A stretch of 64,000 bases of DNA from Haplodiscus bocki (GCA_965655095.1 OZ296658.1:88660001-88724000); one strand, 5' to 3'. Shown: positions 1 to 64,000, numbered from the stretch's first letter. Translations and numbers: made by a program. Notes: generated by a model not told the origin, from the letters alone.

Positions 1-142
1 GATTAATGAGTTCTTTAGTTTACAGACTGGTTTTTATGATGTAACTGATCGAAACATTATATGAATTTTTTTAATCCCTTTTTCATATGAACAAAAACCT
101 GTTGATAATGGTAGTTTAGAATAATTGCAGATGGCGAATACC

Positions 143-1545
143 CCAAACAACATCATTTTCAATTCAACTCGGAATTGGCTGAAAAATATGGGAATGATAG
201 AAATGTAGTTGAGGTTTTTCATAGTTTGTGAGACCTTTTTTTACTGAACATAGAAAAAAGGACATCCGATGACATTTTTGAAGGCGGCATAGTTATGTAG
301 TTCAGTATGCAGCGAGCAATGTGGGTTAAAAAGATTTATGGGGCCATTTGGTTTGATCCAAGTGAAATTGATATCATCATTCCACCGGGTTAATGTAAAG
401 TAGCTGACATCGATAAAGCAATGTAAATAGAAGTGTGAACACATGACTTCTCTTCGAACAACACATCATGGTTTAGTGTACACTTAGTAAAAGAATGAAC
501 TGTTACGTTTTAATATTCATTTTTGGGAGCTGTACAACAGTTTGCTTGGGTTTTAGAGTATATCTTTGACTACTCAAATATTGATGAGGAAGTTTTTATG
601 AAAACTATTAAAGAGAATATGCATGCCTGAAATTTGTATTTCTATTCTTTTGAAAAAAGAAGGGTTTTGTTAATAGGCTTCAAAAAGTGGTTTTCTTCCA
701 AAATAAGATTCTGAACTGGTTAAAAATGGACTCTTGTTGCTACTTAAGCTTTGAGACATAATGGTTTTCCTAGATCATGCTTTCTTTCTGAATTACTGCA
801 AAACGTTTAGCTGTTAATTAAAGTTGTTAGTTAAAACAACATTATTTACAAATCAAAATGGAACTGGCTGATTCTTTTGGAAAATTTGGAACTAGTGGCG
901 ACAATTTTGATTATTTGTGAGATGTTAATTAATAAAAACATAGAAAATGCTAAACTTACGGGTTTAAAAGATGACATCCGCTTTCATTTTTTGAAAGCGG
1001 CATAGATGTGTTGATCAGTATGCAATCAACAATATGGGTAAAAAGTTTATGGGCTCCGTTTGGTTTGATCCAATTGAAATCGTTATCATGGTTCCACCTG
1101 GAATTTTTAAAATAACTGATCAATAACTGAAGCAATGGGAATAGAAGTTTAATCAGATGATTTATGAAGGGAATCAATTCTAACAACACATCTTGTTTTA
1201 GTGTACACTTAATAATGGAATGAAGTGTCAGGTTTTAACTATTCTTTTTGGAAGCTGTAGAACACTTTGTTTGTTTTTTGGAGTTTTTCTTGGACTACTT
1301 AAAGAATGATGAGATGGTTGTTACTATAAAAGAGAATATGCATGCTTAAAATTTAGCTTTCGATTCGTTTTGAAAAAAGGATTTTGTTGAAAAAAGCTTC
1401 AAGAAAGCGATTTCCAAAGTGAGCTGCGAAACTGATTAAATATGGAGTCTTGTTCGTCTTTGTGCTTCAAGACTAAATGGTTTTTTTTATAATACTTAGC
1501 TTCTGAACCACTGGAAAATGATAAGCTGTAACCTAAAGTTGTCAT
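143..1545 (+). repeat. Diverged ~0.7 kb internal tandem duplication within each A monomer (module 1 ~143-834, module 2 ~835-1545)
   Basis: Paired landmarks in unit 1: AAACAACAT..GAAYTGGCTGA (~144-182 and ~834-871), TTTGGTTTGATCCAA (~346 and ~1058), TTAGTGTACACTT (~473 and ~1198), AAGAGAATATGCATGC (~611 and ~1329). Present in every full A unit; B and C carry one copy. Confidence 0.92.
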
Positions 1546-2842
1546 ACCCTAGAATTTGTTTTTAAGTTTCCAAGGATAATTAGGATGTTTTGTGAACCAA
1601 GATTTTTTTTCGTGGTTAGGTGTGTGCTTCTGGGAAATCGGGAAATAATGAAGAAGTCCATCTGAAAACTTTAAAGTCACCCATATCCTCTATCTTTGGC
1701 GTCAGAAAACTGCAAAAATTGTTGAATAATCTGCAAAAGAAAGTTTGGGTCGATGTTGGCACAAGCATCAATATTTTCAAAATCGAAAATCAAGTTGGTA
1801 TGGAGACAGTTAAACAATATAAAGATGCCTTTTCTTTGCATGTGAAGACTCGAGTAATTGGTACAGAAGCTGTTGGATATAGCCTTCAAGTTGGCTGTAT
1901 GCTAAAAAGACAGCATAAGTTGAGATCTTTTGCTGAAATTGCAAAAAAATAGTCAACGCGAGTTCCCTAATTGTATTACGTTTGTTCAATCACAAGCATT
2001 AAACTTGATTCTCTTTTTCCCGGATACGAAGCTCGAGAACAGTTTTTTCACGCAAACCGTTCGATAGTAAAATAGCTACAAGTTTTTTTTAATATATGGA
2101 ACAATCACTTGTTTTGATACGAACAGTTTTTATCGATTAGATAAACCTAGCTAACAAAAAGAAACCAACAACTCAAAAAGTTGAAATTCCTGAAAAGAAT
2201 TGAAATCAAGGTTTCGATATTGCTGAGGTTTGTGAAGTTACTACTGATGACAAAAGGAAGTGTAGCTCGAAAAAAAGATTTGAGAAGTTAATTCAAGTCA
2301 AAAAAATTGATGTTTAAAGTTGATCCTCTGTAAATACAACTTCCGTGGTGGTTTTTCTGAAAGAAACTCAATTTAGAAGGATTGATTTACAATAGAATAA
2401 AATGAGGAACAGCGTATTTGTGGAGAGAAGTCGTTTCATGAATGTTGTTCAAAAGCTGTAAATGACGTGTTTTTCAAAATGGGTTTGCTTGGAAATTGTT
2501 AGCATTGAAATATTTTTTAGCAAACTATGACTCAAAAAGAAGCGCAACAAGCAATGTGAGTTACAGGAGGTGCTTATTGAATTAGAATTGGTTAGTGTGG
2601 ATACTAACATGAAAGTTGGTCTTGTATTAGCAACATCTGCTTCCATCCAACTTTTGGACTCATTTGGTTTTGTTCTATGGATATTACAATTTCTGTTCGT
2701 ATGCTTGTGCGCATCCAAAAGTTTTACTATACTAACTGCCAAAGGAGCTATAAGAATGTATTTACTTATAATACCCAACCAAACAACGATAGATTACTTG
2801 CAAGTTAGTGTTCGTGTATTCTGTATCGTTTTGGACTTATGA
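1245..2842 (+). pseudogene. Decayed DUF4116-like repeat-protein coding sequence (representative copy in A unit 1; present in every monomer)
   Basis: Plus-strand fragments broken by stops and frameshifts: EAVEH..DYLKNDEMVVTIKENMHA*NLAFDSF, LASEPLENDK, CASGKSGNNEEVHLKTLK (CASGKLRNNEEV in unit 10), KIENQVGMETVKQ (EVGMEAVKQ in other units), QNGFAWK, KVGLVLATSASIQLLDSFGFVL. These resemble the DUF4116 unit D-K-E-I-V-L-E-A-V-K-Q-N-G-x-A-L-x-Y-A-S-E-E-L-K-N recalled from memory. No search was run. Confidence 0.65.
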
Positions 2843-5800
2843 GTTTCAAATATCAAAACAATTGAGAAGTATTCGAAAACTGTGGAGCTAGGTTCCTCAG
2901 CGAAGCGTTTTTAAATCTTCGATTGGAGATCTCAAAGGATAACGACCTCTTTCGTGGACCTAAACCGAAATCGATTGAACGAAGCAATACAGGAGATACT
3001 CAAAATTTTTCGCAGTTAGATTCTCATCTCTTCGAGATGTGTTGACTGCTTCAATAATTGCTAGTTGACTTTCATGTTTGTCGGAAAAATCAAATAGACC
3101 TATCTCAATCTACTTCCACTATTGAAAGGGAGTCTTGTCCTAGAGTAAGGATCATCACTTCAGCTGGTAGTAAAAATTTCACTTCAAAAACCGACGAGAG
3201 ACTGGATTTTTGGATGAATGATTCCAAAAAATGACCGCTTTCAGAAACATGGATCATGGGATTAATGAGTTCTTTAGTTTACAGACTGGTTTTTATGATG
3301 TAACTGATCGAAACATTATATGAAATTTTTTAATCCCTTTTTCATATGAACAAAAACCTGTTGATAATGGTAGTTTAGAATAATTGCAGATGGCGAATAC
3401 CCCAAACAACATCATTTTCAATTCAACTCGGAATTGGCTGAAAAATATGTGAATGATAGAAATGTAGTTGAGGTTTTTCATAGTTTGTGAGACCTTTTTT
3501 TTACTGAACATAGAAAAAAGGACATCCGATGACATTTTTGTAGGCGGCATAGTTATGTAGTTCAGTATGCAGTGAGCAATGTGGATTAAAAAATTTACAG
3601 GGCCATTTGGTTTGATCCAAGTGAAATTAATATCATCATTCCACCGGGTTAATGTAAAGTAACTGACATCGATAAAGCAATGTAAATGGAAGTTTAAACA
3701 CATGACTTCTATTCGATCAACACATCATGGTTTAGTGTACACTTAATAAAAGAATGAAGTGTTACGTTTTAATATTCATTTTGGGAGCTGTACAACAGTT
3801 TGCTTGGGTTTTAAAGTATATCTTTGACTACTCAAATATTGATGAGGAATTTTTCATGAAAACTATACAAGAGAATATGCATGCCTAAAATTTGCATTCC
3901 TATTCTTTTGAAAAAAGAAGGGTTTTGTTAATAGGCTTCAAAAAGTGGTTTTCTTCCAAAATAAGATTCTGAACTGGTTAAAAATGGACTCTTGTTGCTA
4001 CTTAAGCTTTGAGACATAATGGTTTTCCTAGATCATGCTTTCTTTCTGAATTACTGCAAAACGTTTAGCTGTTAATTAAAGTTGTTAGTTAAAACAACAT
4101 TATTTACAATTCAAAATAGAACTGGCTGATTCATTTGGAAAATTTTGAACTAGTGGCGACAATTCTGATTATTTGTGAGATGTTAATTAATAAAAACATA
4201 GAAAAGGCTAAACTTAAGGGTTTAAAAGATGACATCCGCTTTCAATTTTTGAGAGCGGCATAGATGTGTTGATCAGTATGCAATCAACAATATGGGTAAA
4301 AAGTTTATGGGCTCCCTTTGGTTTGATCCAATTGAAATCATTATCATGGTTCCACCTGGAATTTTTAAAATAACTGATCAATAACTGAAGCATTGGGAAT
4401 AGAAGTTTAATCAGATGATTTATCAAGGGAATCAATTCTAACAACACATCTTGTTTTAGTGTACACTTAATAATGGAATGAAGTGTTAGGTTTTAACTAT
4501 TCTTTTTGGAAGCTGTAGAACACTTTGTTTGTTTTTTGGAGTTTTTCTTGGACTACTTAAAGAATGATGAGAGGGTTGTTACTATAAAAGAGAATATGCA
4601 TGCTTAAAATTTAGCTTTCGATTCGTTTTGAAAAAAGGATTTTGTTGAAAAAAGCTTCAAGAAAGCGATTTCCAAAGTGAGCTGCGAAACTGATTAAATA
4701 TTGGAGTCTTGTTCATCTTTGTGCTTCAAGACTCAATGGTTTTTTTAAAATGCTTAGCTTCTGAAATTTTGGAAAATGATAAGCTGTAACCTAAAGTTGT
4801 CATACCCTAGAAATTGTTTTTATGTTTCCAAGGACAATTAGAATGTTTTGTGAACCAATATTTTTTTCGTGGTTAGGTGTGCGCTTCTGGGAAATTGGGA
4901 AATAATGAAGAAGTCCATCTGAAAACTTTGAAGTCACCCATGTCCTCTGTCTTTGGCGTCAGAAAACTGCAAAAGTTGTTGAATAATCTGCAAAAGAAAG
5001 TTTGGGTCGATGTTGGCACAAGCATCAATATTTTCAAAATCGAAAAAGAAGTTGGTATGGAGGCAGTTAAACAATATAAGGATGCCTTTTCTTTGCATGT
5101 GAAGAATCGAGTAACTGGTACAGAAGCTGTTGAATATAGCCTTGAAGTTGGCTGTTTGCTAAAAAGACAGCATAAAATGAAATCTTTTGCTGAAATTGAA
5201 AAAAAAATAGTCAACGCGAGTTCCCTAATTGTATTACGTTTGTTCAATCACAAGCATTAAACTTGGTTCTCTTTTTCCTGGATACGAAGTTCGGGAACAG
5301 TTTTTTCACGCAAACCGTTCGATAGTAAAATAGCTACAAGTTTTTTTAATATATGGAACAATCACTGGTTTTGATACGAACAGTTTTTATCGATAAGATA
5401 GAAACCTAGCTAACAAAAAAAACCAACAACTCAAAAAGTTGAACTTCCTGAAAAGATTTCAAATCAAGGTTTCGATATTGCTGAGAATCGTGAAGTTACT
5501 ACTGATGACAGAAGGAAGTGTAGCTCGGAAAAAATGTTTGAGAAGTTAATTCAAGTCAAAAAAATTGATGTTTAAAGTTGATGCTCTGTAAATACAACTT
5601 CCGTGGTGGTTTTTTTGAAAGAAACTCAATTTAGAAGGTTTGATTTACAATAGAAAAAAATGCAGGACAGCGTATTTGTGGAGAGAAGTCGTTTCATAAA
5701 TGTTGTTCAAATGCTGTAAATGACGTGTTTTTCAAAATGGGTTTGCTTGGAAATTGTCAGCATTGAAAGATTTTTTTAGCAAACTATGCCTCAAAAAGTA

Positions 5801-8800
5801 GCGCAACAAGCAATGTGAGTTACAGGAGGTGCTTATTGAATTAGAATTGGTTAGTGTGGATACTAACATGAAGGTTGGTCTTGTATTAGCAACATCTGCC
5901 TCCATCCAACTTCTGGAACTTGTTGGATTTTGTTCTATGAATATTACCTTTTCGTATGGTTGTGCGCATCCAAAAGTTTTAGTAAACTAACTGTCAAAGG
6001 AGGTATAAGAATCTATTTACCTGTAATACCCTACTAAACAACGATAGATTACTTGCAAGTTAGTGTTCGTGTATTCTGTATCGTTTTGGACTTATGAGTT
6101 TCAAATATCAAAACAATTGAGAAATATTCGAAAACTGTGGAGCTAGGTTCCTCAGCGAAGCGTTTTTAAATCTTCGATTTGACATCTCAAAGGATAACAA
6201 CCTCTTTCATGGACCTAAACAGAAATCGATTGAACGAAGCAATACAGGAGATACTCAAAATTCTTCGCAGTTAGATTATCATGTCTTCGAGATGTCTTGA
6301 CTGCTTCAATAACTGCTAGTTGACTTTCATGTTTGTCGGAAAAATCAAATAGACCTATCTCAATCTACTTCCACTATTGAAAGGGAGTCTTGTCCTAGAG
6401 TAAGGAACATCACTTCAGCTGGCAGTAGAAATTTCACTTCAAAAACCGACGAGAGACTGTGGATTTTTGGATGAATGATTCCAAAAATTGACCGCTTTCA
6501 GAAACATGGATCATGGGATTAATGAGTTCTTTAGTTTACAGACTGGTTTTTATGATGTAACTGATCGAAACATTATATGAATTTTTTTAATCCCTTTTTC
6601 ATATGAACAAAAACCTGTTGATAATGGTAGTTTAGAATAATTGCAGATGGCGAATACCCCAAACAACATCATTTTCAATTCAACTCGGAATTGGCTGAAA
6701 AATATGGGAATGATAGAAATGTAGTTGAGGTTTTTCATAGTTTGTGAGACCTTTTTTTACTGAACATAGAAAAAAGGACATCCGATGACATTTTTGAAGG
6801 CGGCATAGTTATGTAGTTCAGTATGCAGTGAGCAATGTGGGTTAAAAAATTTACGGGGCCATTTGGTTTGATCCAAGTGAAATTAATATCATCATTCCAC
6901 CGGGTTAATGTAAAGTAACTGACATCGCTAAAGCAATGTAAATGGAAGTGTGAACACATGACTTCTATTCGATCAACACATTATGGTTTAGTGTACACTT
7001 GATAAAAGAATGAAGTGTTACGTTTTAATATTCATTTTGGGAGCTGTACAACAGTTTGCTTGGGTTTTAAAGTATATCTTTGACTACTCAAATATTGATG
7101 AGGAAATTTTTATGAAAACTATACAAGAGAATATGCATGCCTAGAATTTATATTTCGGTTCTTTTGAAAAAGAAAAGGGTTTTGTAAATAGGCTTCAAAA
7201 AGTGGTTTTCTTCCAAATTAAGATTGTGAACTGGTTAAAAATGGATTCTTGTTGCTACTTAAGCTTTGAGACATAATGGTTTTCCTAGATCAAGCTTCAA
7301 GTCTGAACTACTGCAAAATCTTTAGCTGTTAATTAAAGTTGTTAGTTAAAACAACATTATTTACAATTCAAAATAGAACTGGCTGATTCATTCGGAAAAT
7401 TTGGAACTAGTGGCGACAATTTTGAATATTTGTGAGATGTTAATTAATAAAAACATTGAAAAGGCTACACTTAAGGGTTTAAAAGATGACATCCGCTTTC
7501 ATTTTTTGAAAGCGGCATAGATGTGTTGATCAGTATGCAATCAACAATATGGGTAGAAAGTTTATGGGCTCCGTTTGGTTTGATCCAATTGAAATCATTA
7601 TCATGGTTCCACCTGGAATTTTTAAAATAACTGATCAATAACTGAAGCAATGAGAATAGAAGTTTAATCAGATGATTTATCAAGGGAATCAATTCTAACA
7701 ACACATCTTGTTTTAGTGTACACTTAATAAAGGAATGAAGTGTTAGGTTTTAACTATTCTTTTTGGAAGCTGTAGAACACTTTGTTTGTTTTTTGGAGTT
7801 TTTCTTTGACTACTTAAAGAATGATGAGAGGGTTGTTACTATAAAAGAGAATATGCATGCTTAAAATTTAGCTTTCGATTCGTTTTGAAAAAAGGATTTT
7901 GTTGCAAAAAGCTTCAAGAAAGCGATTTCCAAAGTGAGCTGCCAAACTGAATAAATATTGGAGTCTTGTTCACCTTTGTGCTTCAAGACTCAATGGTTTT
8001 TTTAATGCTTAGCTTCTGAAGTACTGGAAGATGATAAGCTGTAACCTAAAGTTGTCATACCCTAGAATTTGTTTTTAAGTTTCCAAGGACAATTAGGATG
8101 TTTTGTGAACCAAGATTTTTTTTTCGTGGTTAGGTGTGTGCTTCTGGGAAATCGGGAAATAATGAAGAATTCCATCTGAAAACTTTGAAGTCACCCATGT
8201 CCTCTATCTTTGGCGTCAGAAAACTGCAAAAGTTGTTGAATAATCTGCAAAAGAAAGTTTGGGTCGATGTTGGCACGCATCAATATTTTCAAAATCGAAA
8301 ATGAAGTTGGTATGGAGGCAGTTAAACAATATAAAGATGCCTTTTCTTTGTATGTGAAGAATCGAGTAATTGGTACAGAGGCTGTTGGATATAGCCTTCA
8401 TGTTGGCTGTTTGCTAAAAAGACAGCATAAATTGAAATCTTTTGCTGAAATTGAAAAAAAAAGTCAACGCGAGTTCCCTAATTGTATTACGTTTGTTCAA
8501 TCACAAGCATTAAACTTGGTTCTCTTTTTCCTGGATACGAAGTTCGGGAACAGTTTTTTCACGCAAACCGTTCGATAGTAAAATAGCTACAAGTTTTTTT
8601 AATATATGGAACAATCACTGGTTTTGATACGAACAGTTTTTATCGATTAGATAGAAACCTAGCTAACAAAAAGAAACCAACAACTCAAAAAGTTGAACTT
8701 CCTGAAAAGATTTGAAATCAAGGTTTCGATATTGCTGAGATTTGTGAAGTTACTACTGATGACAAAAGGAATTGTGGCTCGAAAAAAAAGAATTGAGAAG

Positions 8801-11800
8801 TTAATTCAAGTCAAAAAAATTGATGTTTAAAGTTGATGCTCTGTAAATTCAACTTCCGTGGTGGTTTTTCTGGAAGAAACTCAATTTAGGAGGTGTGATT
8901 TACAATAGAAAAAAATGCAGAACAGCGTATTTGTGGAGAGAAGTCGTTTCATAAATGTTGTTCAAATGCTGTAAATGACGTGTTTTTCAAAATGGGTTTG
9001 CTTGGAAATTGTCAGCATTGAAAGATTTTTTTTAGCAAACTATGCCTCAAAAAGTAGCGCAACAAGCAATGTGAGTTACAGGAGGTGCTTAGTGAATTAG
9101 AATTGGTTAGTGTGGATACTAACATGAAAGTTCGTCTTGTATTAGCAACATCTGCCTCCATCCAACTTCTGGAACTCGTTGGATTTTGTTCTATGAATAT
9201 TACCTTTTCGTATGGTTGTGCGCATCCAAAAGTTTTACTAAACTAACTGCCAAAGGAGCTATAAGAATGTATTTACTTGTAATACCCAACCAAACAACGA
9301 TAGATTACTTGCAAGTTAGTGTTCGTGTATTCTGTATCGTTTTGAACTTTTGAGTTTCAAATATCAAAACAATTGAGAAATATTCGAAAACTGTGGAGCT
9401 AGGTTCCTCAGCGAAGCGTGTTTAAATCTTCGATTGGACATCTCAAAGGATAACAACCTCTTTCATGGACCTAAACAAATCGATTGAACGAAGCAATACA
9501 GGATATACTCAAAATTCTTCACAGTTAGATTATCATGTCTTCGAGATGTCTTGACTGCTTCAATAACTGCTAGTTGACTTTCATGTTTGTCGGAAAAATC
9601 AAATAGACCTATCTCAATCTACTTCCACTATTGAAAGGGAGTCTTGTCCTAGAGTAAGGAACATCACTTCAGCTGGTAGTAGAAATTTTACTTAAAAAAC
9701 CGACGAGAGACTGTGGATTTTTGGATGAATGATTTCAAAAAATGACCGCTTTCAGAAACATGGATCATGGGATTAATGAGTTCTTTAGTTTACAGACTGG
9801 TTTTTATGATATAACTGATCGAAACATTATATGAAATTTTTTAATCCCTTTTTCATATGAACGAAAACTGTTGATAATGGTAGTTTAGAATGCCCCAAAC
9901 AACATCATTTTCAATTCAACTCGGAATTGGCTGAAAAATATGGGAATGATAGAAATGTAGTTGAGGTTTTTCATAGTTTGTGAGACCTTTTTTTACTGAA
10001 CATAGAAAAAAGGACATCCGATGACATTTTTGAAGGCGGCATAGTTATGTAGTTCAGTATGCAGTGAGCAATGTGGGTTAAAAAATTTATGGGGCCATTT
10101 GGTTCGATCCAAGTGAAATTAATATCATCATTCCACCGGGTTAATGTAAAGTAACTGACATCGATAAAGCAATGTAAATGGAAGTGTAAACACATGACTT
10201 CTATTCGATCAACACATTATGGTTTAGTGTACACTTAATAAAAGAATGAAGTGTTACGTTTTAATATTCATTTTGGGAGCTGTACAACAGTTTGCTTGGG
10301 TTTTAAAGTATATCTTTGACTAATCAAATATTGATGAGGAAATTTTTATGAAAACTATACAAGAGAATATGCATGCCTAGAATTCATATTTCGGTTCTTT
10401 TGAAAAAGAAAAGGGTTTTGTAAATAGGCTTCAAAAAGTGGTTTTCTTCCAAATTAAGATTGTGAACTGGTTAAAAATGGATTCTTGTTGCTACTTAAGC
10501 TTTGAGACATAATGGTTTTCCTAGATCAAGCTTCAAGTCTGAATTACTGCAAAATCTTTAGCTGTTAATTAAAGTTTTTAGTTAAAACAACATTATTTAC
10601 AATTCAAAATAGAACTGGCTGATTCATTTGGAAAATTTGGAACTAGTGGCGACAATTTTGAATATTTGTGAGATGTTAATTAATAAAAACATTGAAAAGG
10701 CTACACTTAAGGGTTTAAAAGATGACATCCGCTTTCATTTTTTGAAAGCGGCATAGATGTGTTGATCAGTATGCAATCAACAATATGGGTAGAAAGTTTA
10801 TGGGCTCCGTTTGGTTTGATCCAATTGAAATCATTATCATGGTTCCACCTGGATTTTTTAAAATAACTGATCAATAACTGAAGCAATGAGAATAGAAGTT
10901 TAATCAGATGATTTATCAAGGGAATCAATTCTAACAACACATCTTGTTTTAGTGTACACTTAATAAAGGAATGAAGTGTTAGGTTTTAACTATTCTTTTT
11001 GGAAGCTGTAGAACACTTTGTTTGTTTTTTGGAGTTTTTTTTTGACTATTTAATGAATGATGAGAGGGTTGTTACTATAAAAGAGAATATGCATGCTTGA
11101 AATTTAGCTTTCGATTCGTTTTGAAAAAAGGATTTTGTTGAAAAAAGCTTCAAGAAAGCGGTTTCCAAATTGAGCTGCGAAACTGATTAAATATGGAGTC
11201 TTGTTCATCTTTGTGCTTCAAGACTCAATGGTTTTTTTAATGCCTAGCTTCTGAAGTACTGGAAGATGATAAGCTGTAACCTAAAGTTTTCATACCCTAG
11301 AATTTGTTTTTAAGTTTCCAGGGATATTCAGGATGTTTTGTGAACCAAGATTTTTTTTTCGTGGTTAGGTGTGTGCTTCTGGGAAATCGGGAAATAATGA
11401 AGAATTCCATCTGAAAACTTTGAAGTCACCCATGTCCTCTATCTTTGGCGTCAGAAAACTGCAAAAGTTGTTGAATAATCTGCAAAAGAAAGTTTGGGTC
11501 GATGTTGGCACGCATCAATATTTTCAAAATCGAAAATGAAGTTGGTATGGAGGCAGTTAAACAATATAAAGATGCCTTTTCTTTGTATGTGAAGAATCGA
11601 GTAATTGGTACAGAGGCTGTTGGATATAGCCTTCATGTTGGCTGTTTGCTAAAAAGACAGCATAAATTGAAATCTTTTGCTGAAATTGAAAAAAAAAGTC
11701 AACGCGAGTTCCCTAATTGTATTACGTTTGTTCAATCACAAGCATTAAACTTGATTCTCTTTTTCTTGGATACGAAGCTCGAGAACAGTTTTTTCACGCA

Positions 11801-50439: not shown

Positions 50440-50744
50440 GATTGAGGAGTTCTCAAGTTTACAGAATAGTTTGAATGATTTGACTGATAGAAACATTATA
50501 TGAATTTTTCTAACCAGTGTTTGTTATGAACGAAAACCTGTAGATGATGGTATTTCAAAATTAATGCTGATGGCGCATACCCCAAGCAACATAATTTACA
50601 ATTCAATCTAGAACTGGCTGATTCTTATGGAAGTGATAGAAGAATTAGCGAGGATTTTCAATATTTGCGTGTTTTTGGATATCAAAAACGTAGGAGAAGC
50701 TATAATTGAAGGTGTAAAAGATGACTTCCGCTGTCATTTTTTGA

Positions 50745-50984
50745 AGGAGGCATAGATGTGTAGATCAGTATGCAATCAACAACATGGGTAAAAAGTCTTT
50801 TGGCTCCGTTTGGTTCGATCCAGCTGAAATTATCATCAAACCACCTGGATTATGTAAAATAACTGACATCGATAAAGCAATTGGAATTGAAGTTTGAACA
50901 GATGATTTCTCAAGGAAATGTCTTCGCACAACACATCATCATTTAGTGTACACTTTAGGAAATAATGAAGTTTTGGGTTTTACT
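50745..50984 (+). pseudogene. Decayed coding fragment resembling a Polinton/adintovirus-type penton (minor capsid) protein (best-preserved copy)
   Basis: 80 codons with one stop: RRHRCVDQYAINNMGKKSFGSVWFDPAEIIIKPPGLCKITDIDKAIGIEV*TDDFSRKCLRTTHHHLVYTLGNNEVLGFT. The (I)PPG-x-Y-x-I-x-D-I ... LGF pattern is one I associate with such pentons; the match is by eye only. Confidence 0.45.
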
Positions 50985-50985
50985 T

Positions 50986-51600
50986 TTCATTTTAGAAGCT
51001 GTAGAACAATTCGTTTGTCTTTGACTGGTCGAACAGTGATGAGGAAATTGTTATGGAGGCTATAAAAGAGATTGTGCTTGCCTAAAAATTAGCTTTCGAT
51101 TCATGCAAAAGAGAAAAGGAGTTTGTTGAATAAGCTCTAAAAAATGGTTTTCTTCCCACGTAAGCTGCTGAACTGGTTAAAAGTAGAATATTGTTACTTA
51201 AGCTTTAAGACCTAATTTTTTTAGATCACTCTTCGCTTGTGACTTACTGCACAATGATAAGCTCTGAAATAATTTCGTCTAGCTTTAGAATTCGCTCATA
51301 GAATTCCGGAGATGGTTTGATGTTGTTTCATAGACTATAATTTTTTTTCGTGGTCAAGTGTGTGCTCCTTAGAAATTAGGAAATAGTGAAGTTCTTGTAA
51401 AAGCTGTAAAGTAACCCGTGTTCTTTATGTCTCGTGTCAGAAAAATGCTAAAAATTGTTGAAGAATCTGTAGAAAAGTATGGGTTGATGTTGGCACAAGC
51501 ATCAGATAATTTCATACTCGAAAATGCAGTTGTTTTTAGGCAGTTAAAGAGCCTAAAAGTCCGGCTATTTGCATGCGAATAATTAAATAATTGGTATAGA
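50986..51600 (+). pseudogene. Decayed DUF4116-like repeats in C unit 1 (clearest 25-residue periodicity)
   Basis: From 51038 one frame reads DEEIVMEAIKEIVLA*KLAFDSCKR / EKEFVE*ALKNGFLPT*AAELVK, so DEEIV and EKEFV are exactly 25 codons apart. Preceded by FILEAVEQ (50986) and followed by KLGNSEVLVKAVK (~51373). Confidence 0.7.
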
Positions 51601-52569
51601 AGCTATTGAATATGGTCTCCAGGTTGGATGTTTGCTAATCTAAACAGTAGCTTAAATTGAATTCCAGTGCTGAAATCAAGGATATTAGTCATCGCGAATT
51701 CATTAATGGTAATACTTTTGTTGAATCACAAGGAATAAAATTGACTCCGTTTTCCAGTTTAAAATGTTAGAGAAAGGTTATTTTTAACGTGATCAGTTCG
51801 GTAGAAAAATAGGTACAACTTCTTTCCTAATATTTAGGACAACCACTGGTTTGGAACAAACAGTTTTTTTCGATGAGATAGAAAACTAACTACTAAAAAG
51901 GAACCAACAATTAAAAAAAATACTATCCTGAAAGGAACTGAAATCAGAGATTTGATTTTGCTGAAGTTTCTGGAGTTACTATAAATGACGAAAGGGAGTT
52001 TAGTTCAAGGAAACGAATTTATTGCGAATTGAGATCAAATCGAAAAGTTGATGTTTAAGGTTGATGCTCTGTTAAAAACAAACTTTCAAAGTGGTTTTCC
52101 TGAAGGAAGCTCAATTCGATGCTTTAATGTACAATAGACTAAAGTGCGAAACAGGATATTTGTGGAGACAAATCTTTTCGAAAATGATGTTCAAGTGCTG
52201 TAATTTTTTTCAAAATTGGTTTTTTTGCAATTGTTAGCATTAGAAGTTTTAGCAAATTATGATCCATGAAATAACACAACAAGCAAAGTAATATAAAAGA
52301 AATACTCATTGAATTAGAATTGGTTAGTGTGAATACTTATATGAAATTTGGTCTTGCATTAACAGCATGTGCCTTCAACCAACTTCTGGAACTCACTGGA
52401 TTTTGTTGTGTGAAAATTACCATTTAATATCGTATGGTTGTGCGCAACGAAAAGTTTTACTGAATCAACTGCCAAGGGAGCGTGGCGATTGTATTAACCT
52501 TTAATAAGGAATCCATCAACGATAGCTTACTTGCACGTTAGTGTTTGTATTCTGGATCTTTTTAACCTT

Positions 52570-53205
52570 ATGAGTTTCAAATATCAGAACAAATGACCAT
52601 TATTTCAAACCTGCGGAGTAAGGTTCCTCAGCGAAGCGTTTTCGAGTCTCCTATTGGACATCTCAAAGGATAACAACCTCTTTCATAGACCCAAATAGAA
52701 ATCGATTGAACGAAGCACTACAAAACTTCAAAATTTTGCAGTCAATTTGTCATGTCTTCGAGTTGTGTTGACTGCATCACTAACTGCGTGTTGACGGGAA
52801 GATTTTTGAATTTGTCGTTAAAAATTAATGGACCGATCTGAATCTACTTCAATAATGAATGTGAGTCTCTTCTACTAAAAAGTCTCTTCTTTTAAACTTC
52901 AATTTCAGATATCAAAAATACTCGAAACCTGTGGAGTTAGGTTCCTCAGCGAAGCTATTTCAAATCTTCGATATGACATCTCAAAGGATAACAGGATAAC
53001 AACCTCGTTGATGAATCTAATCAAATCGATTGAACAAAGCACTACAAAACCTAAAATTTTTGCAGCTCAATGATCTTCTCTTCGGGATCTGTTGACTGCG
53101 TTAATAACTGCTAGTTGACTGGAAGATTTTTGGGTTTGTCGGTAAAAATTCATAGACCGATCTGAATCCACTTCAATGAGAATGTGAGTCTCCTCTACTA
53201 GAGGT
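52570..53205 (+). repeat. Diverged ~320 bp internal tandem duplication within each C monomer
   Basis: GTTCCTCAGCGAAGC at 52623 and 52941, each followed by ACATCTCAAAGGATAACA, ATCGATTGAAC and GACCGATCTGAATC. A monomers have one copy and B has none. Confidence 0.9.
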
Positions 53206-55215
53206 AACAACATCACTTTGTTAGTAATAGAAAATACAAGTAAAAAACCCTCGAGAGACTGGAATTTTAGATGAATGTTTCCAAGAAATGTTTTTATTGG
53301 AATTCCATTAGTGATTCGGGAAAAATGGATGGTGGGATTGAGGAGTTCTCAAGTTTACAAAATAGTTTGAATGATTTGACTGATAGAAACATTATATGAA
53401 TTTTTCTAACCAATGTTTGTTATGAACGAAAACCTGTAGATGATGGTATTTCAAAATTAATGCTGATGGCGCATACCCCAAGCAACATAATTTACAATTC
53501 AATCTAGAACTGGCTGATTCTTATGGAAGTGATAGAAGAATTAGCGAGGATTTTCAATATTTGCGTGTTTTTGGATATCAAAAACGTAGGAGAAGCTATA
53601 ATTGAAGGTGTAAAAGATGACTTCCGCTGTCATTTTTTGAAGGAGGCATAGATGTGTAGATCAGTATGCAATCAACAACATGGGTAAAAAGTCTTTTGGC
53701 TCCGTTTGGTTCGATCCAGTTGAACTTATCATCAATCCACCTGGATTATGTAAAATAACTGACATCGATAAAGCAATTGGAATTCAAGTTTGAACAGATG
53801 ATTTCTCAAGGAAATGTCTTCCCACAACACATCATCATTTAGTGTACACTCTAGGAAAGAATGAAGTTTTGGGTTTTACTTTTCATTTTAGAAGCTGTAG
53901 AACAAATCGTTTGTGTCTTTGACTGGTCGAACAGTGATGAGGAAATTGTTATGGAAGCTATAAAAGAGATTGTGCATGCCTAAAAATTAGCTTTCGATTC
54001 ATTCAAAAGAGAAAAGGAGTTTGTTGAATAAGCTCTAAAAAATGGTTTTCTTCCCACGTAAGCTGCTAAACTGGTTAAAAGTAGAATATTGTTGTTACTT
54101 AAGCTTTAAGACCTAATTTTTTTTAGATCACTCTTCGCTTCTGACTTACTGCTCAATGATAAGCTGTAAAATAAATTTGTCTAGCTTTAGAATTCGCTCA
54201 TAGAATTCCGGAGATGGTTTGATGTTGTTTCATAGACCATAGACTTTTTTCGTGGTCAAGTGTGTGCTCCTTAGAAATTAGGAAATATTGAAGTTCATGT
54301 AAAAGCTGTAAAGTCACCCGTGTTCTTTGTGTTTCGCGTCAGAAAAATGCTAAAAATTGTTGAAGAATCTGTAAAAAAGTATGGGTTGATGTTGGCACAA
54401 GCATCAGATAATTTCATACTCGAAAATGCAGTTGTTTTGAGGCAGTTAAAGAACCTCAAATTCCGGCTATTTGCATGCGAATAATTAAATAATTGGTATA
54501 GAAGCTATTGAATATGGTCTCCAAGTTGGATGTTTGCTAATCTAAACAGTAGCATAAATTGAATTCCAGTGCTGAAATCAAGGATATTAGTCATCGCGAA
54601 TTCCTTAATGGTAATACTTTTGTTGAATCACAAGGAATAAAATTGACTCCGTTTTCCAGTTTACAATGGTAGAGAAAGGTTATTTTTAACGTGATCAGTT
54701 CGGTAGAAAAATAGGTACAACTTCTTTCCTAATATTTAGGACAACCACTGGTTTGCAACAAACAGTTTTTTTTTCGATGAGATGGAAACCTAACTACTAA
54801 AAAGGAACCAACAACTCAAAAAAAATACTATCCTGAAGGAACTGAAATCAGAGATTTGATTTTGCTGAAGTTTCTGGAGTTACTATAAATGACGAAAGGG
54901 AGTTTAGTTCAAGGAAACGAATTTCTTGCGAATTGAGATCAAATCGAAAAGTTGATGTTTAAGGTTGATGCTCTGTTAAAAACAAACTTTCAAAGTGGTT
55001 TTCCTGAAGGAAACTCAATTCGGTGCTTTAATGTACAATAGAATAAAGTGCGAAACAGCATTTTTGTGGAGACAAATTGTTTCAAAAATGATGTTCAATT
55101 GTTGTATTTTTTTTTCAAATTTGGTTTTTTTGCAATTGTTAGCATTAGTAGAATTTTTAGCAAATTATGATCCATGAAATAACACAACAAGCAAAGTATT
55201 ATAAAAGAAATACTC

Positions 55216-55267
55216 ATTGAATTAGAATTGGTTAGTGTGAAATTGAATTAGAATTGGTTAGTGTGAA
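55216..55267 (+). repeat. Perfect 26 bp tandem duplication (ATTGAATTAGAATTGGTTAGTGTGAA)x2
   Basis: Also at 58152-58203 and 61084-61135. Single copy in C unit 1 (~52308), in relict D and in the A units. Confidence 0.95.
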
Positions 55268-58200
55268 TACTTATATGAAATTTGGTCCTGCATTAACAGC
55301 ATCTGCCTTCAACCAACTTCTGGAACTCACTGGATTTTGTTTTCTGAAAATTACCGTTTAAATTCGTATGGTTGTGCGCAACGAAAAGTATTACTGAATC
55401 AACTGCCAAGGGAGCGTGGCGATTGTATTAACCTTTAATACGGAATCCGTCAACGATAGCTTACTTGCACGTTAGTGTTTGTATTCTGGATCTTTTTAAC
55501 CATATGAGTTTCAAATATCAGAACAAATGACCATTATTTCAAACCTGCGGAGTAAGGTTCCTCAGCGAAGCGTTTTCGAGTCTCCTATTGGACATCTCAA
55601 AGGATAACAACCTCTTTCATAGACCCAAATAGAAATCGATTGAACGAAGCACTACAAAACTTCAAAATTTTGCAGTCAATTTGTCATGTCTTCGAGTTGT
55701 GTTGACTGCATCACTAACTGCGTGTTGACTGGAAGATTTTTGAATTTGTCGTTAAAAATTAATGGACCGATCTGAATCTACTTCACTAATGAATGTGAGT
55801 CTCTTCTACTAAAGAGTCTCTTTTTTTAAACTTTAATTTCAGATATCAAAACAAATACTCGAAACCTGTGGAGTTAGGTTCCTCAGCGAAGCTATTTCAA
55901 ATCTTCGATATGACATGTCAAAGGATAACAGGATAACAACCTCGTTGATGAATCTAATCAAATCGATTGAACAAAGCACTACGAAACCTAAAATTTTTGC
56001 AGCTCAATGATCGTCTCTTTGAGATCTGTTGACTGCGTCAATAACTGCTAGTTGACTGGAAGATTTTTGGATTTCTCGGTAAAAATTCATAGACCGATCT
56101 GAATGCACTTCAATAAGAATGTGAGTCTCCTCTACTAGAGGTAACAACATCACTTTGTTAGTAATAGAAAATACAAGTAGAAAACCCTCGAGAGACTGGA
56201 ATTTTAGATGAATGTTTCCAAGAAATGTTTTTCTATTGGAATTCCATTAGTGCTTCGGGAAAAATGGATGGTGGGATTGAGGAGTTCTCAAGTTTACAAA
56301 ATAGTTTGAATGATTTGACTGATAGAAACATTATATGAATTTTTCTAACCAATGTTTGTTATGAACGAAAACCTGTAGATGATGGTATTTCAAAATTAAT
56401 GCTGATGGCGCATACCCCAAGCAACATAATTTACAATTCAATCTAGAACTGGTTGATTCTTATGGAAGTGATAGAAGAATTAGCGAGGATTTTCATTATT
56501 TGCGTGTTTTTGGATATCAAAAACGTAGAAGCTATAATTGAAGGTGTAAAAGATGACTTCCGCTGTCATTTTTTGAAGGAGGCATAGAAATGTAGATCAG
56601 TATGCAATCAACAACATGGGTGAAAAGTCTTTTGGCTCCGTTTGGTTCGATCCAGTTGAAATTATCATCAATCCACCTGGATTATGTAAAATAACTGACA
56701 TCGATAAAGCAATTGGAATTCAAGTTTGAACAGATGATTTCTCAAGGAAATGTCTTCCCACAACACATCATCATTTAGTGTACACTCTAGGAAAGAATGA
56801 AGTTCTGGGTTTTACTTTTCATTTTAGAAGCTGTAGAACAAATCGTTTGTGTCTTTGACTGGTCGAACAGTGATGAGGAAATTGTTATTGAAGCTATAAA
56901 AGAGATTGTGCATGCCTAAAAATTAGCTTTCGATTCATTCAAAAGAGAAAAGGAGTTTGTTGAATAAGCTCTAAAAAATGGTTTTCTTCCCACGTAAGCT
57001 GCTAAACTGGTTAAAAGTAGAATATTGTTGTTACTTAAGCTTTAAGACCTAATTTTTTTTAGATCACTCTTCGCTTCTGACTTACTGCTCAATGATAAGC
57101 TCTGAAATAATTTCGTCTAGCTTTAGAATTCGCTCATAGAATTCCGGAGATGGTTTGATGTTGTTTCATAGACCATAGACTTTTTTCGTGGTCAAGTGTG
57201 TGCTCCTTAGAAATTAGGAAATAGTGAAGTTCTTGTAAAAGCTGTAAAGTCACCCGTGTTCTTTGTGTTTCGCGTCAGAAAAATGCTAAAAATTGTTGAA
57301 GAATCTGTAGAAAAGTATGGGTTGATGTTGGCACAAGCATCAGATAATTTCATACTCGAAAATGCAGTTGTTTTGAGGCAGTTAAAGAACCTCAAATTCC
57401 GGCTATTTGCATGCGAATAATTAAATAATTGGTATAGAAGCTATTGAATATGGTCTCCAAGTTGGATGTTTGCTAATCTAAACAGTAGCATAAATTGAAT
57501 TCCAGTGCTGAAATCAAGGATATTAGTCATCGCGAATTCCTTAATGGTAATACTTTTGTTGAATCACAAGGAATAAAATTGACTCCGTTTTCCAGTTTAC
57601 AATGGTAGAGAAAGGTTATTTTTAACGTGATCAGTTCGGTAGAAAAATAGGTACAACTTCTTTCCTAATATTTAGGACAACCACTGGTTTGGAACAAACA
57701 GTTTTTTTTTCGATGAGATGGAAACCTAACTACTAAAAAGGAACCAACAACTCAAAAAAAATACTATCCTGAAGGAACTGAAATCAGAGATTTGATTTTG
57801 CTGAAGTTTCTGGAGTTACTATAAATGACGAAAGGGAGTTTAGTTCAAGGAAACGAATTTCTTGCGAATTGAGATCAAATCGAAAAGTTGATGTTTAAGG
57901 TTGATGCTCTGTTAAAAACAAACTTTCAAAGTGGTTTTCGTGAAGGAAACTCAATTCGATGCTTTAATGTACAATAGAATAAAGTGCGAAACAGCATTTT
58001 TGTGGAGACAAATTGTTTCAAAAATGATGTTCAATTGTTGTAATTTTTTTTCAAATTTGGTTTTTTTGCAATTGTTAGCATTAGTAGAATTTTTAGCAAA
58101 TTATGATCCATGAAATAACACAACAAGCAAAGTATTATAAAAGAAATACTCATTGAATTAGAATTGGTTAGTGTGAAATTGAATTAGAATTGGTTAGTGT

Positions 58201-61200
58201 GAATACTTATATGAAATTTGGTCCTGCATTAACAGCATCTGCCTTCAACCAACTTCTGGAACTCACTGGATTTTGTTTTCTGAAAATTACCGTTTAAATT
58301 CGTATGGTTGTGCGCAACGAAAAGTATTACTGAATCAACTGCCAAGGGAGCGTGGCGATTGTATTAACCTTTAATACGGAATCCGTCAACGATAGCTTAC
58401 TTGCACGTTAGTGTTTGTATTCTGGATCTTTTTAACCATATGAGTTTCAAATATCAGAACAAATGACCATTATTTCAAACCTGCGGAGTAAGGTTCCTCA
58501 GCGAAGCGTTTTGGAGTCTCCTATTGGACATCTCAAAGGATAACAACCTCTTTCATAGACCCAAATAGAAATCGATTGAACGAAGCACTACAAAACTTCA
58601 AAATTTTGCAGTCAATTTGTCATGTCTTCGAGTTGTGTTGACTGCATCACTAACTGCGTGTTGACTGGAAGATTTTTGAATTTGTCGTTAAAAATTAATG
58701 GACCGATCTGAATCTACTTCACTAATGAATGTGAGTCTCTTCTACTAAAGAGTCTCTTTTTTTAAACTTTAATTTCAGATATCAAAACAAATACTCGAAA
58801 CCTGTGGAGTTAGGTTCCTCAGCGAAGCTATTTCAAATCTTCGATATGACATGTCAAAGGATAACAGGATAACAACCTCGTTGATGAATCTAATCAAATC
58901 GATTGAACAAAGCACTACGAAACCTAAAATTTTTGCAGCTCAATGATCGTCTCTTTGAGATCTGTTGACTGCGTCAATAACTGCTAGTTGACTGGAAGAT
59001 TTTTGGATTTGTCGGTAAAAATTCATAGACCGATCTGAATGCACTTCAATAAGAATGTGAGTCTCCTCTACTAGAGGTAACAACATCACTTTGTTAGTAA
59101 TAGAAAATACAAGTAGAAAACCCTCGAGAGACTGGAATTTTAGATGAATGTTTCCAAGAAATGTTTTTCTATTGGAATTCCATTAGTGCTTCGGGAAAAA
59201 TGGATGGTGGGATTGAGGAGTTCTCAAGTTTACAAAATAGTTTGAATGATTTGACTGATAGAAACATTATATGAATTTTTCTAACCAATGTTTGTTATGA
59301 ACGAAAACCTGTAGATGATGGTATTTCAAAATTAATGCTGATGGCGCATACCCCAAGCAACATAATTTACAATTCAATCTAGAACTGGTTGATTCTTATG
59401 GAAGTGATAGAAGAATTAGCGAGGATTTTCATTATTTGCGTGTTTTTGGATATCAAAAACGTAGAAGCTATAATTGAAGGTGTAAAAGATGACTTCCGCT
59501 GTCATTTTTTGAAGGAGGCATAGATGTGTAGATCAGTATGCAATCAACAACATGGGTGAAAAGTCTTTTGGCTCCGTTTGGTTCGATCCAGTTGAAATTA
59601 TCATCAATCCACCTGGATTATGTAAAATAACTGACATCGATAAAGCAATTGGAATTCAAGTTTGAACAGATGATTTCTCAAGGAAATGTCTTCGCACAAC
59701 ACATCATCATTTAGTGTACACTCTAGGAAAGAATGAAGTTCTGGGTTTTACTTTTCATTTTAGAAGCTGTAGAACAATTCGTTTGTGTCTTTGACTGGTC
59801 GCACAGTGATGAGGAAATTGTTATGGAGGCTATAAAAGAGATTGTGCTTGCCTAAAAATTAGCTTTCGATTCATGCAAAAGAGAAAAGGAGTTTGTTGAA
59901 TAAGCTCTAAAAAATGGTTTTCTTCCCACGTAAGCTGCTGAACTGGTTAAAAGTAGAATATTGTTACTTAAGCTTTAAGACCTAATTTTTTTAGATCACT
60001 CTTCGCTTCTGACTTACTGCACAATGATAAGCTCTGAAATAATTTCGTCTAGCTTTAGAATTCGCTCATAGAATTCCGGAGATGGTTTGATGTTGTTTCA
60101 TAGACCATAGACTTTTTTCGTGGTCAAGTGTGTGCTCCTTAGAAATTAGGAAATAGTGAAGTTCTTGTAAAAGCTGTAAAGTCACCCGTGTTCTTTGTGT
60201 TTCGCGTCAGAAAAATGCTAAAAATTGTTTAAGAATCTGTAGAAAAGTATGGGTTGATGTTGGCACAAGCTTCAGATAATTTCATACTCGAAAATGCAGT
60301 TGTTTTGAGGCAGTTAAAGAACCTCAAATTCCGGCTATTTGCATGCGAATAATTAAATAATTGGTATAGAAGCTATTGAATATGGTCTCCAAGTTGGATG
60401 TTTGCTAATCTAAACAGTAGCATAAATTGAATTCCAGTGCTGAAATCAAGGATATTAGTCATCGCGAATTCCTTAATGGTAATACTTTTGTTGAATCACA
60501 AGGAATAAAATTGACTCCGTTTTCCAGTTTACAATGGTAGAGAAAGGTTATTTTTAACGTGATCAGTTCGGTAGAAAAATAGGTACAACTTCTTTCCTAA
60601 TATTTAGGACAACCACTGGTTTGGAACAAACAGTTTTTTTTTCGATGAGATGGAAACCTAACTACTAAAAAGGAACCAACAACTCAAAAAAAATACTATC
60701 CTGAAGGAACTGAAATCAGAGATTTGATTTTGCTGAAGTTTCTGGAGTTACTATAAATGACGAAAGGGAGTTTAGTTCAAGGAAACGAATTTCTTGCGAA
60801 TTGAGATCAAATCGAAAAGTTGATGTTTAAGGTTGATGCTCTGTTAAAAACAAACTTTCAAAGTGGTTTTCGTGAAGGAAACTCAATTCGATGCTTTAAT
60901 GTACAATAGAATAAAGTGCGAAACAGCATTTTTGTGGAGACAAATTGTTTCAAAAATGATGTTCAATTGTTGTAATTTTTTTTCAAATTTGGTTTTTTTG
61001 CAATTGTTAGCATTAGTAGAATTTTTAGCAAATTATGATCCATGAAATAACACAACAAGCAAAGTATTATAAAAGAAATACTCATTGAATTAGAATTGGT
61101 TAGTGTGAAATTGAATTAGAATTGGTTAGTGTGAATACTTATATGAAATTTGGTCCTGCATTAACAGCATCTGCCTTCAACCAACTTCTGGAACTCACTG

Positions 61201-64000
61201 GATTTTGTTTTCTGAAAATTACCGTTTAAATTCGTATGGTTGTGCGCAACGAAAAGTATTACTGAATCAACTGCCAAGGGATCGTGGCGATTGTATTAAC
61301 CTTTAATACGGAATCCGTCAACGATAGCTTACTTGCACGTTAGTGTTTGTATTCTGGATCTTTTTAACCATATGAGTTTCAAATATCAGAACAAATGACC
61401 ATTATTTCAAACCTGCGGAGTAAGGTTCCTCAGCGAAGCGTTTTCGAGTCTCCTATTGGACATCTCAAAGGATAACAACCTCTTTCATAGACCCAAATAG
61501 AAATCGATTGAACGAAGCACTACAAAACTTCAAAATTTTGCAGTCAATTTGTCATGTCTTCGAGTTGTGTTGACTGCATCACTAACTGCGTGTTGACTGG
61601 AAGATTTTTGAATTTGTCGTTAAAAATTAATGGACCGATCTGAATCTACTTCACTAATGAATGTGAGTCTCTTCTACTAAAGAGTCTCTTTTTTTAAACT
61701 TTAATTTCAGATATCAAAACAAATACTCGAAACCTGTGGAGTTAGGTTCCTCAGCGAAGCTATTTCAAATCTTCGATATGACATGTCAAAGGATAACAGG
61801 ATAACAACCTCGTTGATGAATCTAATCAAATCGATTGAACAAAGCACTACGAAACCTAAAATTTTTGCAGCTCAATGATCGTCTCTTTGAGATCTGTTGA
61901 CTGCGTCAATAACTGCTAGTTGACTGGAAGATTTTTGGATTTGTCGGTAAAAATTCATAGACCGATCTGAATGCACTTCAATAAGAATGTGAGTCTCCTC
62001 TACTAGAGGTAACAACATCACTTTGTTAGTAATAGAAAATACAAGTAGAAAACCCTCGAGAGACTGGAATTTTAGATGAATGTTTCCAAGAAATGTTTTT
62101 CTATTGGAATTCCATTAGTGCTTCGGGAAAAATGGATGGTGGGATTGAGGAGTTCTCAAGTTTACAAAATAGTTTGAATGATTTGACTGATAGAAACATT
62201 ATATGCATTATATGAATTTTTCTAACCAATGTTTGTTATGAACGAAAACCTGTAGATGATGGTATTTCAAAATTAATGCTGATGGCGCATACCCCAAGCA
62301 ACATAATTTACAATTCAATCTAGAACTGGTTGATTCTTATGGAAGTGATAGAAGAATTAGCGAGGATTTTCATTATTTGCGTGTTTTTGGATATCAAAAA
62401 CGTAGAAGCTATAATTGAAGGTGTAAAAGATGACTTCCGCTGTCATTTTTTGAAGGAGGCATAGATGTGTAGATCAGTATGCAATCAACAACATGGGTGA
62501 AAAGTCTTTTGGCTCCGTTTGGTTCGATCCAGTTGAAATTATCATCAATCCACCTGGATTATGTAAAATAACTGACATCGATAAAGCAATTGGAATTCAA
62601 GTTTGAACAGATGATTTCTCAAGGAAATGTCTTCCCACAACACATCATCATTTAGTGTACACTCTAGGAAAGAATGAAGTTCTGGGTTTTACTTTTCATT
62701 TTAGAAGCTGTAGAACAAATCGTTTGTGTCTTTGACTGGTCGAACAGTGATGAGGAAATTGTTATGGAAGCTATAAAAGAGATTGTGCATGCCTAAAAAT
62801 TAGCTTTCGATTCATTCAAAAGAGAAAAGGAGTTTGTTGAATAAGCTCTAAAAAATGGTTTTCTTCCCACGTAAGCTGCTAAACTGGTTAAAAGTAGAAT
62901 ATTGTTGTTACTTAAGCTTTAAGACCTAATTTTTTTTAGATCACTCTTCGCTTCTGACTTACTGCTCAATGATAAGCTCTGAAATAATTTCGTCTAGCTT
63001 TAGAATTCGCTCATAGAATTCCGGAGATGGTTTGATGTTGTTTCATAGACCATAGACTTTTTTCGTGGTCAAGTGTGTGCTCCTTAGAAATTAGGAAATA
63101 GTGAAGTTCTTGTAAAAGCTGTAAAGTCACCCGTGTTCTTTGTGTTTCGCGTCAGAAAAATGCTAAAAATTGTTGAAGAATCTGTAGAAAAGTATGGGTT
63201 GATGTTGGCACAAGCTTCAGATAATTTCATACTCGAAAATGCAGTTGTTTTGAGGCAGTTAAAGAACCTCAAATTCCGGCTATTTGCATGCGAATAATTA
63301 AATAATTGGTATAGAAGCTATTGAATATGGTCTCCAAGTTGGATGTTTGCTAATCTAAACAGTAGCATAAATTGAATTCCAGTGCTGAAATCAAGGATAT
63401 TAGTCATCGCGAATTCCTTAATGGTAATACTTTTGTTGAATCACAAGGAATAAAATTGACTCCGTTTTCCAGTTTACAATGGTAGAGAAAGGTTATTTTT
63501 AACGTGATCAGTTCGGTAGAAAAATAGGTACAACTTCTTTCCTAATATTTAGGACAACCACTGGTTTGGAACAAACAGTTTTTTTTCGATGAGATGGAAA
63601 CCTAACTACTAAAAAGGAACCAACAACTCAAAAAAAATACTATCCTGAAGGAACTGAAATCAGAGATTTGATTTTGCTGAAGTTTCTGGAGTTACTATAA
63701 ATGACGAAAGGGAGTTTAGTTCAAGGAAACGAATTTCTTGCGAATTGAGATCAAATCGAAAAGTTGATGTTTAAGGTTGATGCTCTGTTAAAAACAAACT
63801 TTCAAAGTGGTTTTCGTGAAGGAAACTCAATTCGATGCTTTAATGTACAATAGAATAAAGTGCGAAACAGCATTTTTGTGGAGACAAATTGTTTCAAAAA
63901 TGATGTTCAATTGTTGTAATTTTTTTTCAAATTTGGTTTTTTTGCAATTGTTAGCATTAGTAGAATTTTTAGCAAATTATGATCCATGAAATAACACAAC

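Follow-up and report, generated by a model that had tools for sequence, protein, structure and literature searches.

The question raised by this locus of Haplodiscus bocki is what sequence seeded its long tandem repeats and how several related repeat families came to lie side by side within it. We analyzed the whole 64,000-nt stretch, referred to here as the window. Our preferred reading, to which we give a probability of roughly 0.8, is that the window is a macrosatellite field seeded by a unit of ~2.55 kb with a DUF4116 gene and probably a spacer, which would have been remodeled in the steps set out below.

Array layout and the shared unit

Self-comparison of the window by BLAST gave 1,567 matches, and every one of them lies on the plus strand. 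They recur every ~3.25 kb at 1-33 kb, every ~1.24 kb at 33.07-48.2 kb, and every ~2.93 kb at ~49.7-64 kb, in agreement with an initial annotation that had described three adjoining families of these lengths on one strand. The blocks follow each other head to tail throughout, in the order A, B, relic D, and C (Table 1), at a uniform GC content of 33%. Units were cut at a landmark common to the families, which yielded 40 segments. Module 1 of the A unit measures 686-688 bp, with a single hybrid of 707 bp, and module 2 with the rest of the unit measures 2,548-2,571 bp in the nine complete units; B units are 1,235-1,246 bp (n = 10) or 995-996 bp (n = 2) long, and the four complete C units are 2,896-2,941 bp long. 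Within the 64-kb window, copy number ranges from 4 to 12 per family.

Descent of all families from one unit of 2.55-2.6 kb, as the annotation had proposed, is borne out by the finding that a doubled 2.55-kb A-derived unit (7342..9889) covers 62,749 of the 64,000 window bases in BLAST. One A unit without module 1 (2,540 nt) and one C unit without 321 nt are colinear at 78% over 2,469 columns, and because the biggest internal gap in this alignment is only 21 nt, the large family-specific segments that would have counted against a common unit are absent. C minus its ~0.32-kb duplication approximates the ancestral unit, as had been suggested, and B was correctly described as a subset of ~1.24 kb, given that its sequence aligns at ~74% with 872-2096 of the C reference unit. 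Identity over the common 0.7-kb segment is 95.6-98.3% inside families and 70.7-77.1% between them, as averages that omit the hybrid A unit and come from an alignment that omits the two short B units and D; this excess of within-array over between-array identity, which had also been noted, is the pattern of concerted evolution. Differences within the family for module 2 and the rest of the A unit amount to 759 substitutions and 100 indels, 20 of them in homopolymers, and because they are mostly substitutions the copies do not resemble sequencing-error clones of one unit.

The arrays consist of head-to-tail tandem monomers longer than 500 bp, as macrosatellites do, and by sequence they are non-coding, in that open frames in the window reach at most 143 aa and a whole unit stays closed under every set of stop codons tried. 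Rfam and tRNA searches of the window gave no match. Over the whole window, the observed/expected ratio is 0.73 for CpG and 0.63 for TpA. Methylation-type mutation was considered and rejected, with transitions at 16 of 294 CpG sites versus 106 of 2,181 other C/G sites and no CpG excess among the copies.

Table 1. Positions of the features discussed in the text, counted from the first base of the window
Feature	Position	Strand	Description
Array A	1..33066	+	~3.25-kb period; extends past the left window end
Example A module 1	6654..7341	+	Landmark +0 to +688; truncated 0.69-kb monomer
Example full-length monomer (A module 2 and rest)	7342..9889	+	Colinear with C at 78%
Longest plus-strand open frame, 127 aa	4877..5260	+	Weak DUF4116 match, E 0.064
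B-type tract inside array A, ~650 bp	27608..28255	+	Carries B junction 28036/28037
A/B boundary 33066/33067	32792..33341	+	Non-homologous join; 275-bp tandem overlap at 80% identity
Array B	33067..48204	+	~1.24-kb period; first 1.24 kb of the monomer from the landmark
D-type tract in B unit 8, ~60 bp	42468..42530	+	Carries the ~245-bp deletion junction of D
Relic D	48205..49200	+	Single unamplified monomer with internal deletions
Array C	49200..64000	+	~2.93-kb period; extends past the right window end
Putative extent of the old gene, one C unit	53325..55300	+	ATG, repeat region, and 3' part; both ends putative
Best-kept DUF4116 (PF13475) remnant	53936..54043	+	26.7 bits versus curated cut-off of 24.9, E 4.1e-6

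Protein-gene remnants in the monomer

Comparison of 24 frame translations, with X at stops, against Pfam gave sub-cut-off matches to DUF4116 on the plus strand with E values of 0.0017 (C) and 0.11 (B). The same scan gave sub-cut-off matches to DUF6294, YtpI, and Rpb1, of which the match to DUF6294 (E 0.0006) was slightly better than the best one to DUF4116 and lay in the same frame. Among 13 shorter segments, picked after the first DUF4116 match, one scored above the Pfam gathering cut-off for this domain, three were weak, and nine had no match. The best-kept remnant was translated with X at its two in-frame stops, and its repeat block recurs in all units without the deletion of D. A profile built from six segments of the window returned a single protein among 847 candidates, P0003, which carries PF13475 (E 1.6e-3). 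In the opposite direction, a profile of P0003 only had 95 matches of at least 5 bits in the window, all 95 on the plus strand; those of at least 6 bits occur in all families at offsets of 40-1080 from the landmark, and the best score was 20.0 bits versus no more than 10.1 in 30 shuffles. A module 1, B, and C had their peak of DNA self-similarity at lags of 74, 73, and 75 nt, respectively, and A module 2 at 63 and then 74 nt. The lag of 73-75 nt, a weak signal (z 2-3.4), was the top one in three of the four 5' parts and missing from the 3' parts. The window resembles DUF4116 proteins in one segment that passes the curated score and, given profile matches at several offsets and the weak lag signal, perhaps in tandem repeats spaced by ~25 residues, but differs from them in that its copies are remnants with no frame above the 143 aa given above. 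DUF4116 has been modeled as an alpha-solenoid (PMC8078820), and other work mentions the domain in connection with virus-like transfers in Symbiodiniaceae and with enrichment in a genome bin of a diatom.

The 1.1 kb that directly follows the landmark is of gene origin. In 14 A and C units, a conserved ATG-led frame opens ~130-150 nt upstream of the landmark; an F-box-like look of the N-terminal frame had no support in Pfam. An excess of G over C on the plus strand persists to ~+1800 and is then gone. Given that 15 segments outside the repeat region, including the 3' 1.3 kb, had no significant family match, it is this skew that points to gene plus spacer in the 3' part, and the old gene would have occupied ~2 kb and the spacer 0.5 kb. 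Judged from its sequence, the monomer appears to be a decayed DUF4116 (PF13475) repeat-protein gene with a probable spacer, and a decayed protein-coding gene would explain both the length of the monomer and its internal landmarks. The longest plus-strand open frame is a fragment of the dead gene and not a gene in its own right.

In the best repeat block, visual alignment places one codon opposite a leucine of P0003, and each of the 37 units in which this site survives has a stop there (11 of A module 1, 11 of A module 2, 10 of B, and 5 of C); the other 3 of the 40 units have lost the site by deletion. The codon lies ~+470-490 from each landmark (e.g., ~53981) and reads TAA, TAG, or TGA, never sense, in the 37 units. 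That the codon varies without taking a sense form is a post hoc observation and probably reflects transition bias. A second stop, in the ATG-led frame, is common to A and C in 12 of 14 units. Recoding was tried and rejected: with TGA as the sole stop the longest frame was 436 aa versus up to 451 aa in shuffles, and with TAA and TAG as stops it was 179 aa, which exceeds the shuffles (118 aa) and falls far below unit length. The alternation of the common stop among all three codons also argues against recoding.

Mismatches between families had no 3-nt periodicity in any of the six pairs (statistic, -0.029 to 0.009; p, 0.22-0.94). Simulated coding divergence gave values of at least 0.015 at omega 0.2 and, for the long pair at omega 0.4, of at least -0.005 versus the observed -0.012; omega values of 0.6 or more are indistinguishable from neutral in this test. 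Frame-breaking indels made up 43 of the 57 indels between A and C, and such indels dominate every family pair. No intact frame under purifying selection, as expected of a live DUF4116 gene cluster, was present. Given that this codon is never sense in the 37 units and that codon periodicity is lacking between families, death of the gene probably preceded the family split, and the frame-breaking indels suggest further that most or all of the family divergence occurred post-mortem.

We considered that the families could instead descend from a cluster of live paralogous DUF4116 genes under relaxed selection, which died separately and were then amplified, in which case the divergence would be partly gene-family evolution. 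The near-star tree with short inner branches described below, the blindness of the periodicity test to omega of at least 0.6, and the conserved ATG-led frame common to A and C would all fit such a cluster. We nevertheless regard it as unlikely, given that the four lineages each carry a stop at the identical codon, that A and C have the second stop in common in those 12 of 14 units, and that indels breaking the frame prevail in every pair. Death of the gene ahead of the split is the reading that we retain.

The protein searches that were run did not return an intact parent gene. A search for a live parent with the longest plus-strand frame found nothing among 222 candidates, and a second profile returned no DUF4116 protein and P0002 alone among 5,594 candidates. 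A representative protein search had two matches, P0001 and P0002, which are frames of family-A-like copies with 39 and 112 exact residues, respectively, in common with frames of the window; both appear to be chance frames of satellite copies. P0002 is located on a 485-kb contig. Bacterial and archaeal genomes gave 279 pattern matches, 0 of which were confirmed, and plasmids and phages gave no match.

Remodeling of the unit and exchange between families

The A unit combines a truncated monomer of 0.69 kb (module 1) with a full monomer of 2.55 kb, and of the nine units that are complete in the array, one has a hybrid in the place of module 1. The array also contains a chimeric 1.9-kb unit at 26134 and a unit truncated at 33066. 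Over the 0.7-kb segment the two modules are the least alike pair, at 70.7%, and whole A units are ~96% alike, so that divergent monomers that are not sisters were amplified as one unit in the manner of a higher-order repeat. Patches of 100% identity occur between non-adjacent A copies. The tree of the shared segment joins A module 1 with B and A module 2 with C, with support of 100/100 (37 rows) and 99/97 (16 rows), and is near-star with short inner branches. A clade of the two A modules was disfavored at a marginal AU p of 0.041, and a pairing of A module 1 with C was disfavored at p = 0.048. Family-fixed sites number 23 for A module 1 with B, 8 for A module 1 with C, and 4 for the two A modules. 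The first two site classes segregate along the segment with a switch after column 506 (permutation p = 0.006), and A module 1 clusters with B over roughly the first 500 columns.

The initial annotation had read A as the ancestor plus its own duplication of ~0.7 kb, which would make the modules a sister pair in this tree. The lengths fit, but the modules are the least alike pair and are not sisters. Given this divergence and the tree, A appears to be a deleted dimer of two old monomers and would thus be a two-monomer repeat whose first monomer has lost ~1.87 kb, with ancestral monomers that were already recombinant. A single monomer that underwent three independent, lineage-specific edits with zero exchange between families would fit the lengths and the colinearity, and the AU rejection of the A-module clade is marginal. 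The divergence of the modules, the 4 family-fixed sites that join them versus 23 and 8, the shift of grouping along the segment, and the exchange seen in the border tracts all speak against it, and the B-type tract at 27608-28255 contradicts it if the assembly is right; we consider this model highly improbable. Derivation of the A junction from the B junction by a second deletion was also rejected, with a lineage pattern opposite to the prediction. The 3' junction of A module 1 (~7342) falls within an imperfect inverted repeat of 14 nt whose loop is 6 nt long (7330-7363), with equivalents in other A units, a layout suggestive of fold-back or of templated end joining.

Array B comprises ten full units and the two of 995-996 bp, with a two-unit repeat of 2,237 bp duplicated at 98.5% and with copies at the right edge decayed to 87-93%; its join (35973/35974) has ~3 nt of microhomology. 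The C unit is the full monomer plus an old duplication of ~321-324 bp. Since the two copies of this duplication are 83% alike and match the single copy in A at 84% and 81%, it would be about as old as the split between A and C. The left edge of C (49474-50302) holds 2.6 copies of 324 bp. Three C units carry a perfect 26-bp duplication (55216-55267, 58152-58203, and 61084-61135) that is missing from the unit at ~52311 and is a recent variant spreading through array C. Relic D, which the annotation had recognized as a relict, is real but is a deleted mosaic: it is nearest to A module 2 at 48360-48690 (81.8%; informative sites, 16 versus 4 and 2), B-like at its 5' end, and grades into C-type from ~49200.

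Independence of the lineages, as implied by the earlier description, is not supported, given that the A array contains B sequence and that two B units contain D sequence. The B-type tract in A is 96-99% like B in its central windows. A gives way to B within 7 identical nt (27601-27607), and the return to A module 1 falls in ~27 identical nt (~28255-28280). The start of B at 33067 is at the position homologous to the switch near 27604, inside the same 7-nt stretch, and the two A-to-B junctions share edge variants that are missing from the aligned inner B copies; one of the two probably derived from the other. The ~60-bp D-type tract occurs a second time at ~44708-44770, in B unit 10, and the two short B units with this tract were duplicated as the 2,237-bp pair. 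By these tracts, the families appear to have swapped sequence across ~20% divergence near their borders. Repeats are prone to mis-joins, and the mosaic borders and the 2,237-bp B duplication could be assembly artefacts, which is very unlikely in view of the private variants of the B tract in A, the distinctness of each of the neighboring units, and the great excess of substitutions over homopolymer indels.

The deletion junctions of A and B both return to within ~8 nt of the common landmark (7342, 56412). This would suit a non-autonomous mobile element (e.g., rolling-circle) with a captured DUF4116 fragment, for which 0.69, 1.24, and 2.55 kb would be forms with one fixed and one variable end, and the pertinent part of PMC12692304 documents Helitrons as a source of satellites. 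However, the ATG-led frame crosses the landmark in A and C, and therefore the landmark is not an element end. The window also has no minus-strand self-matches, no hairpin common to the three units by inspection of the inverted repeats listed, and no Pfam match to transposase, helicase, or reverse transcriptase remnants in the 24 frames, all of them marks of a transposon-derived satellite; decayed element ends may still be present. An origin from a mobile element is distinctly unlikely.

History of the field and its relation to known satellites

Under the gene-seeded history that we favor, a repeat-protein gene would have gained at least one stop. The dead unit would then have multiplied in tandem, and its monomers would have drifted by 22-29% as non-coding DNA while still recombining. 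New units would have arisen by rearrangement, namely, A as a dimer whose first monomer lost ~1.87 kb, B as a monomer shortened to 1.24 kb, and C as a monomer that gained the 0.32-kb duplication. Local re-amplification by unequal exchange and conversion could have brought each unit to 95-99% identity, with D remaining single and decaying, and adjoining families may have kept swapping short tracts via short identical stretches. We infer the order of these events, the role of unequal exchange as the amplifier, and the lack of function. Of the earlier proposal that one unit was remodeled three ways and each version amplified locally, common descent and local amplification are supported, but independence of the lineages is not.

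Macrosatellites, in the portions of PMC12692304 and PMC5615363 devoted to them, have non-coding monomers longer than 500 bp, with related families that arise from an older satellite and cycles of amplification and degeneration. The field described here is like them in its homogeneous arrays, divergent edges, variant-born families, and multi-monomer units. Section 4.1 of PMC12692304 names transposons, rRNA gene spacers, micro- and minisatellites, and older satellites as sources and includes no protein-coding gene in that list; unlike these sources, the seed here would be a protein-coding gene, and the 4-12 copies per family in the window are few for a satellite. D4Z4/DUX4 (PMC12376486) and Su(Ste) and the Y-linked ampliconic families of Drosophila (relevant part of PMC8794474) likewise have a kilobase-sized tandem unit with a protein gene that is homogenized by conversion, and Su(Ste) is described in the latter source as a source of piRNA. 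D4Z4 units carry the protein-encoding DUX4 retrogene, whereas the units here have no intact frame and the gene apparently died before diversification. Compared with the higher-order repeats of alpha satellite, as outlined in PMC5615363, A is similarly an amplified two-monomer unit, with monomers ~71% and units ~96% alike; unlike alpha satellite, it has kilobase-scale monomers, one of them truncated, and the likeness is one of sequence alone. Among the titles listed in literature searches for DUF4116 and PF13475, none concerned a satellite, and broader searches, with most subscription papers outside their scope, listed none on such a case.

In summary, the locus appears to be a group of macrosatellites derived from a pseudogene, ordinary in their satellite dynamics and unusual in their seed. 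It is doubtful that a dead member of an expanded DUF4116 family now serves as chromosome-structural DNA or, for the live family, as a source of small RNAs or a conversion donor, with host recombination that tolerates 20-25% mismatch; if the field were not inert in this way, the common breakpoint and the border swaps would mark a persistent recombination hot spot that generates satellite families. For annotation, the database proteins P0001 and P0002 are a warning that chance frames of such copies may be entered as proteins. The origins of long satellite monomers are usually unreadable, and here the seed can be named as a probable repeat-protein gene, with a common stop codon that places the death of the gene ahead of the family split. 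The later steps, from truncation and the making of a dimer to re-amplification and exchange across families, can be seen side by side in 64 kb together with a relic that was never amplified, and an intact parent gene, used as an outgroup, would allow every substitution and breakpoint to be polarized, which is rare for satellites.
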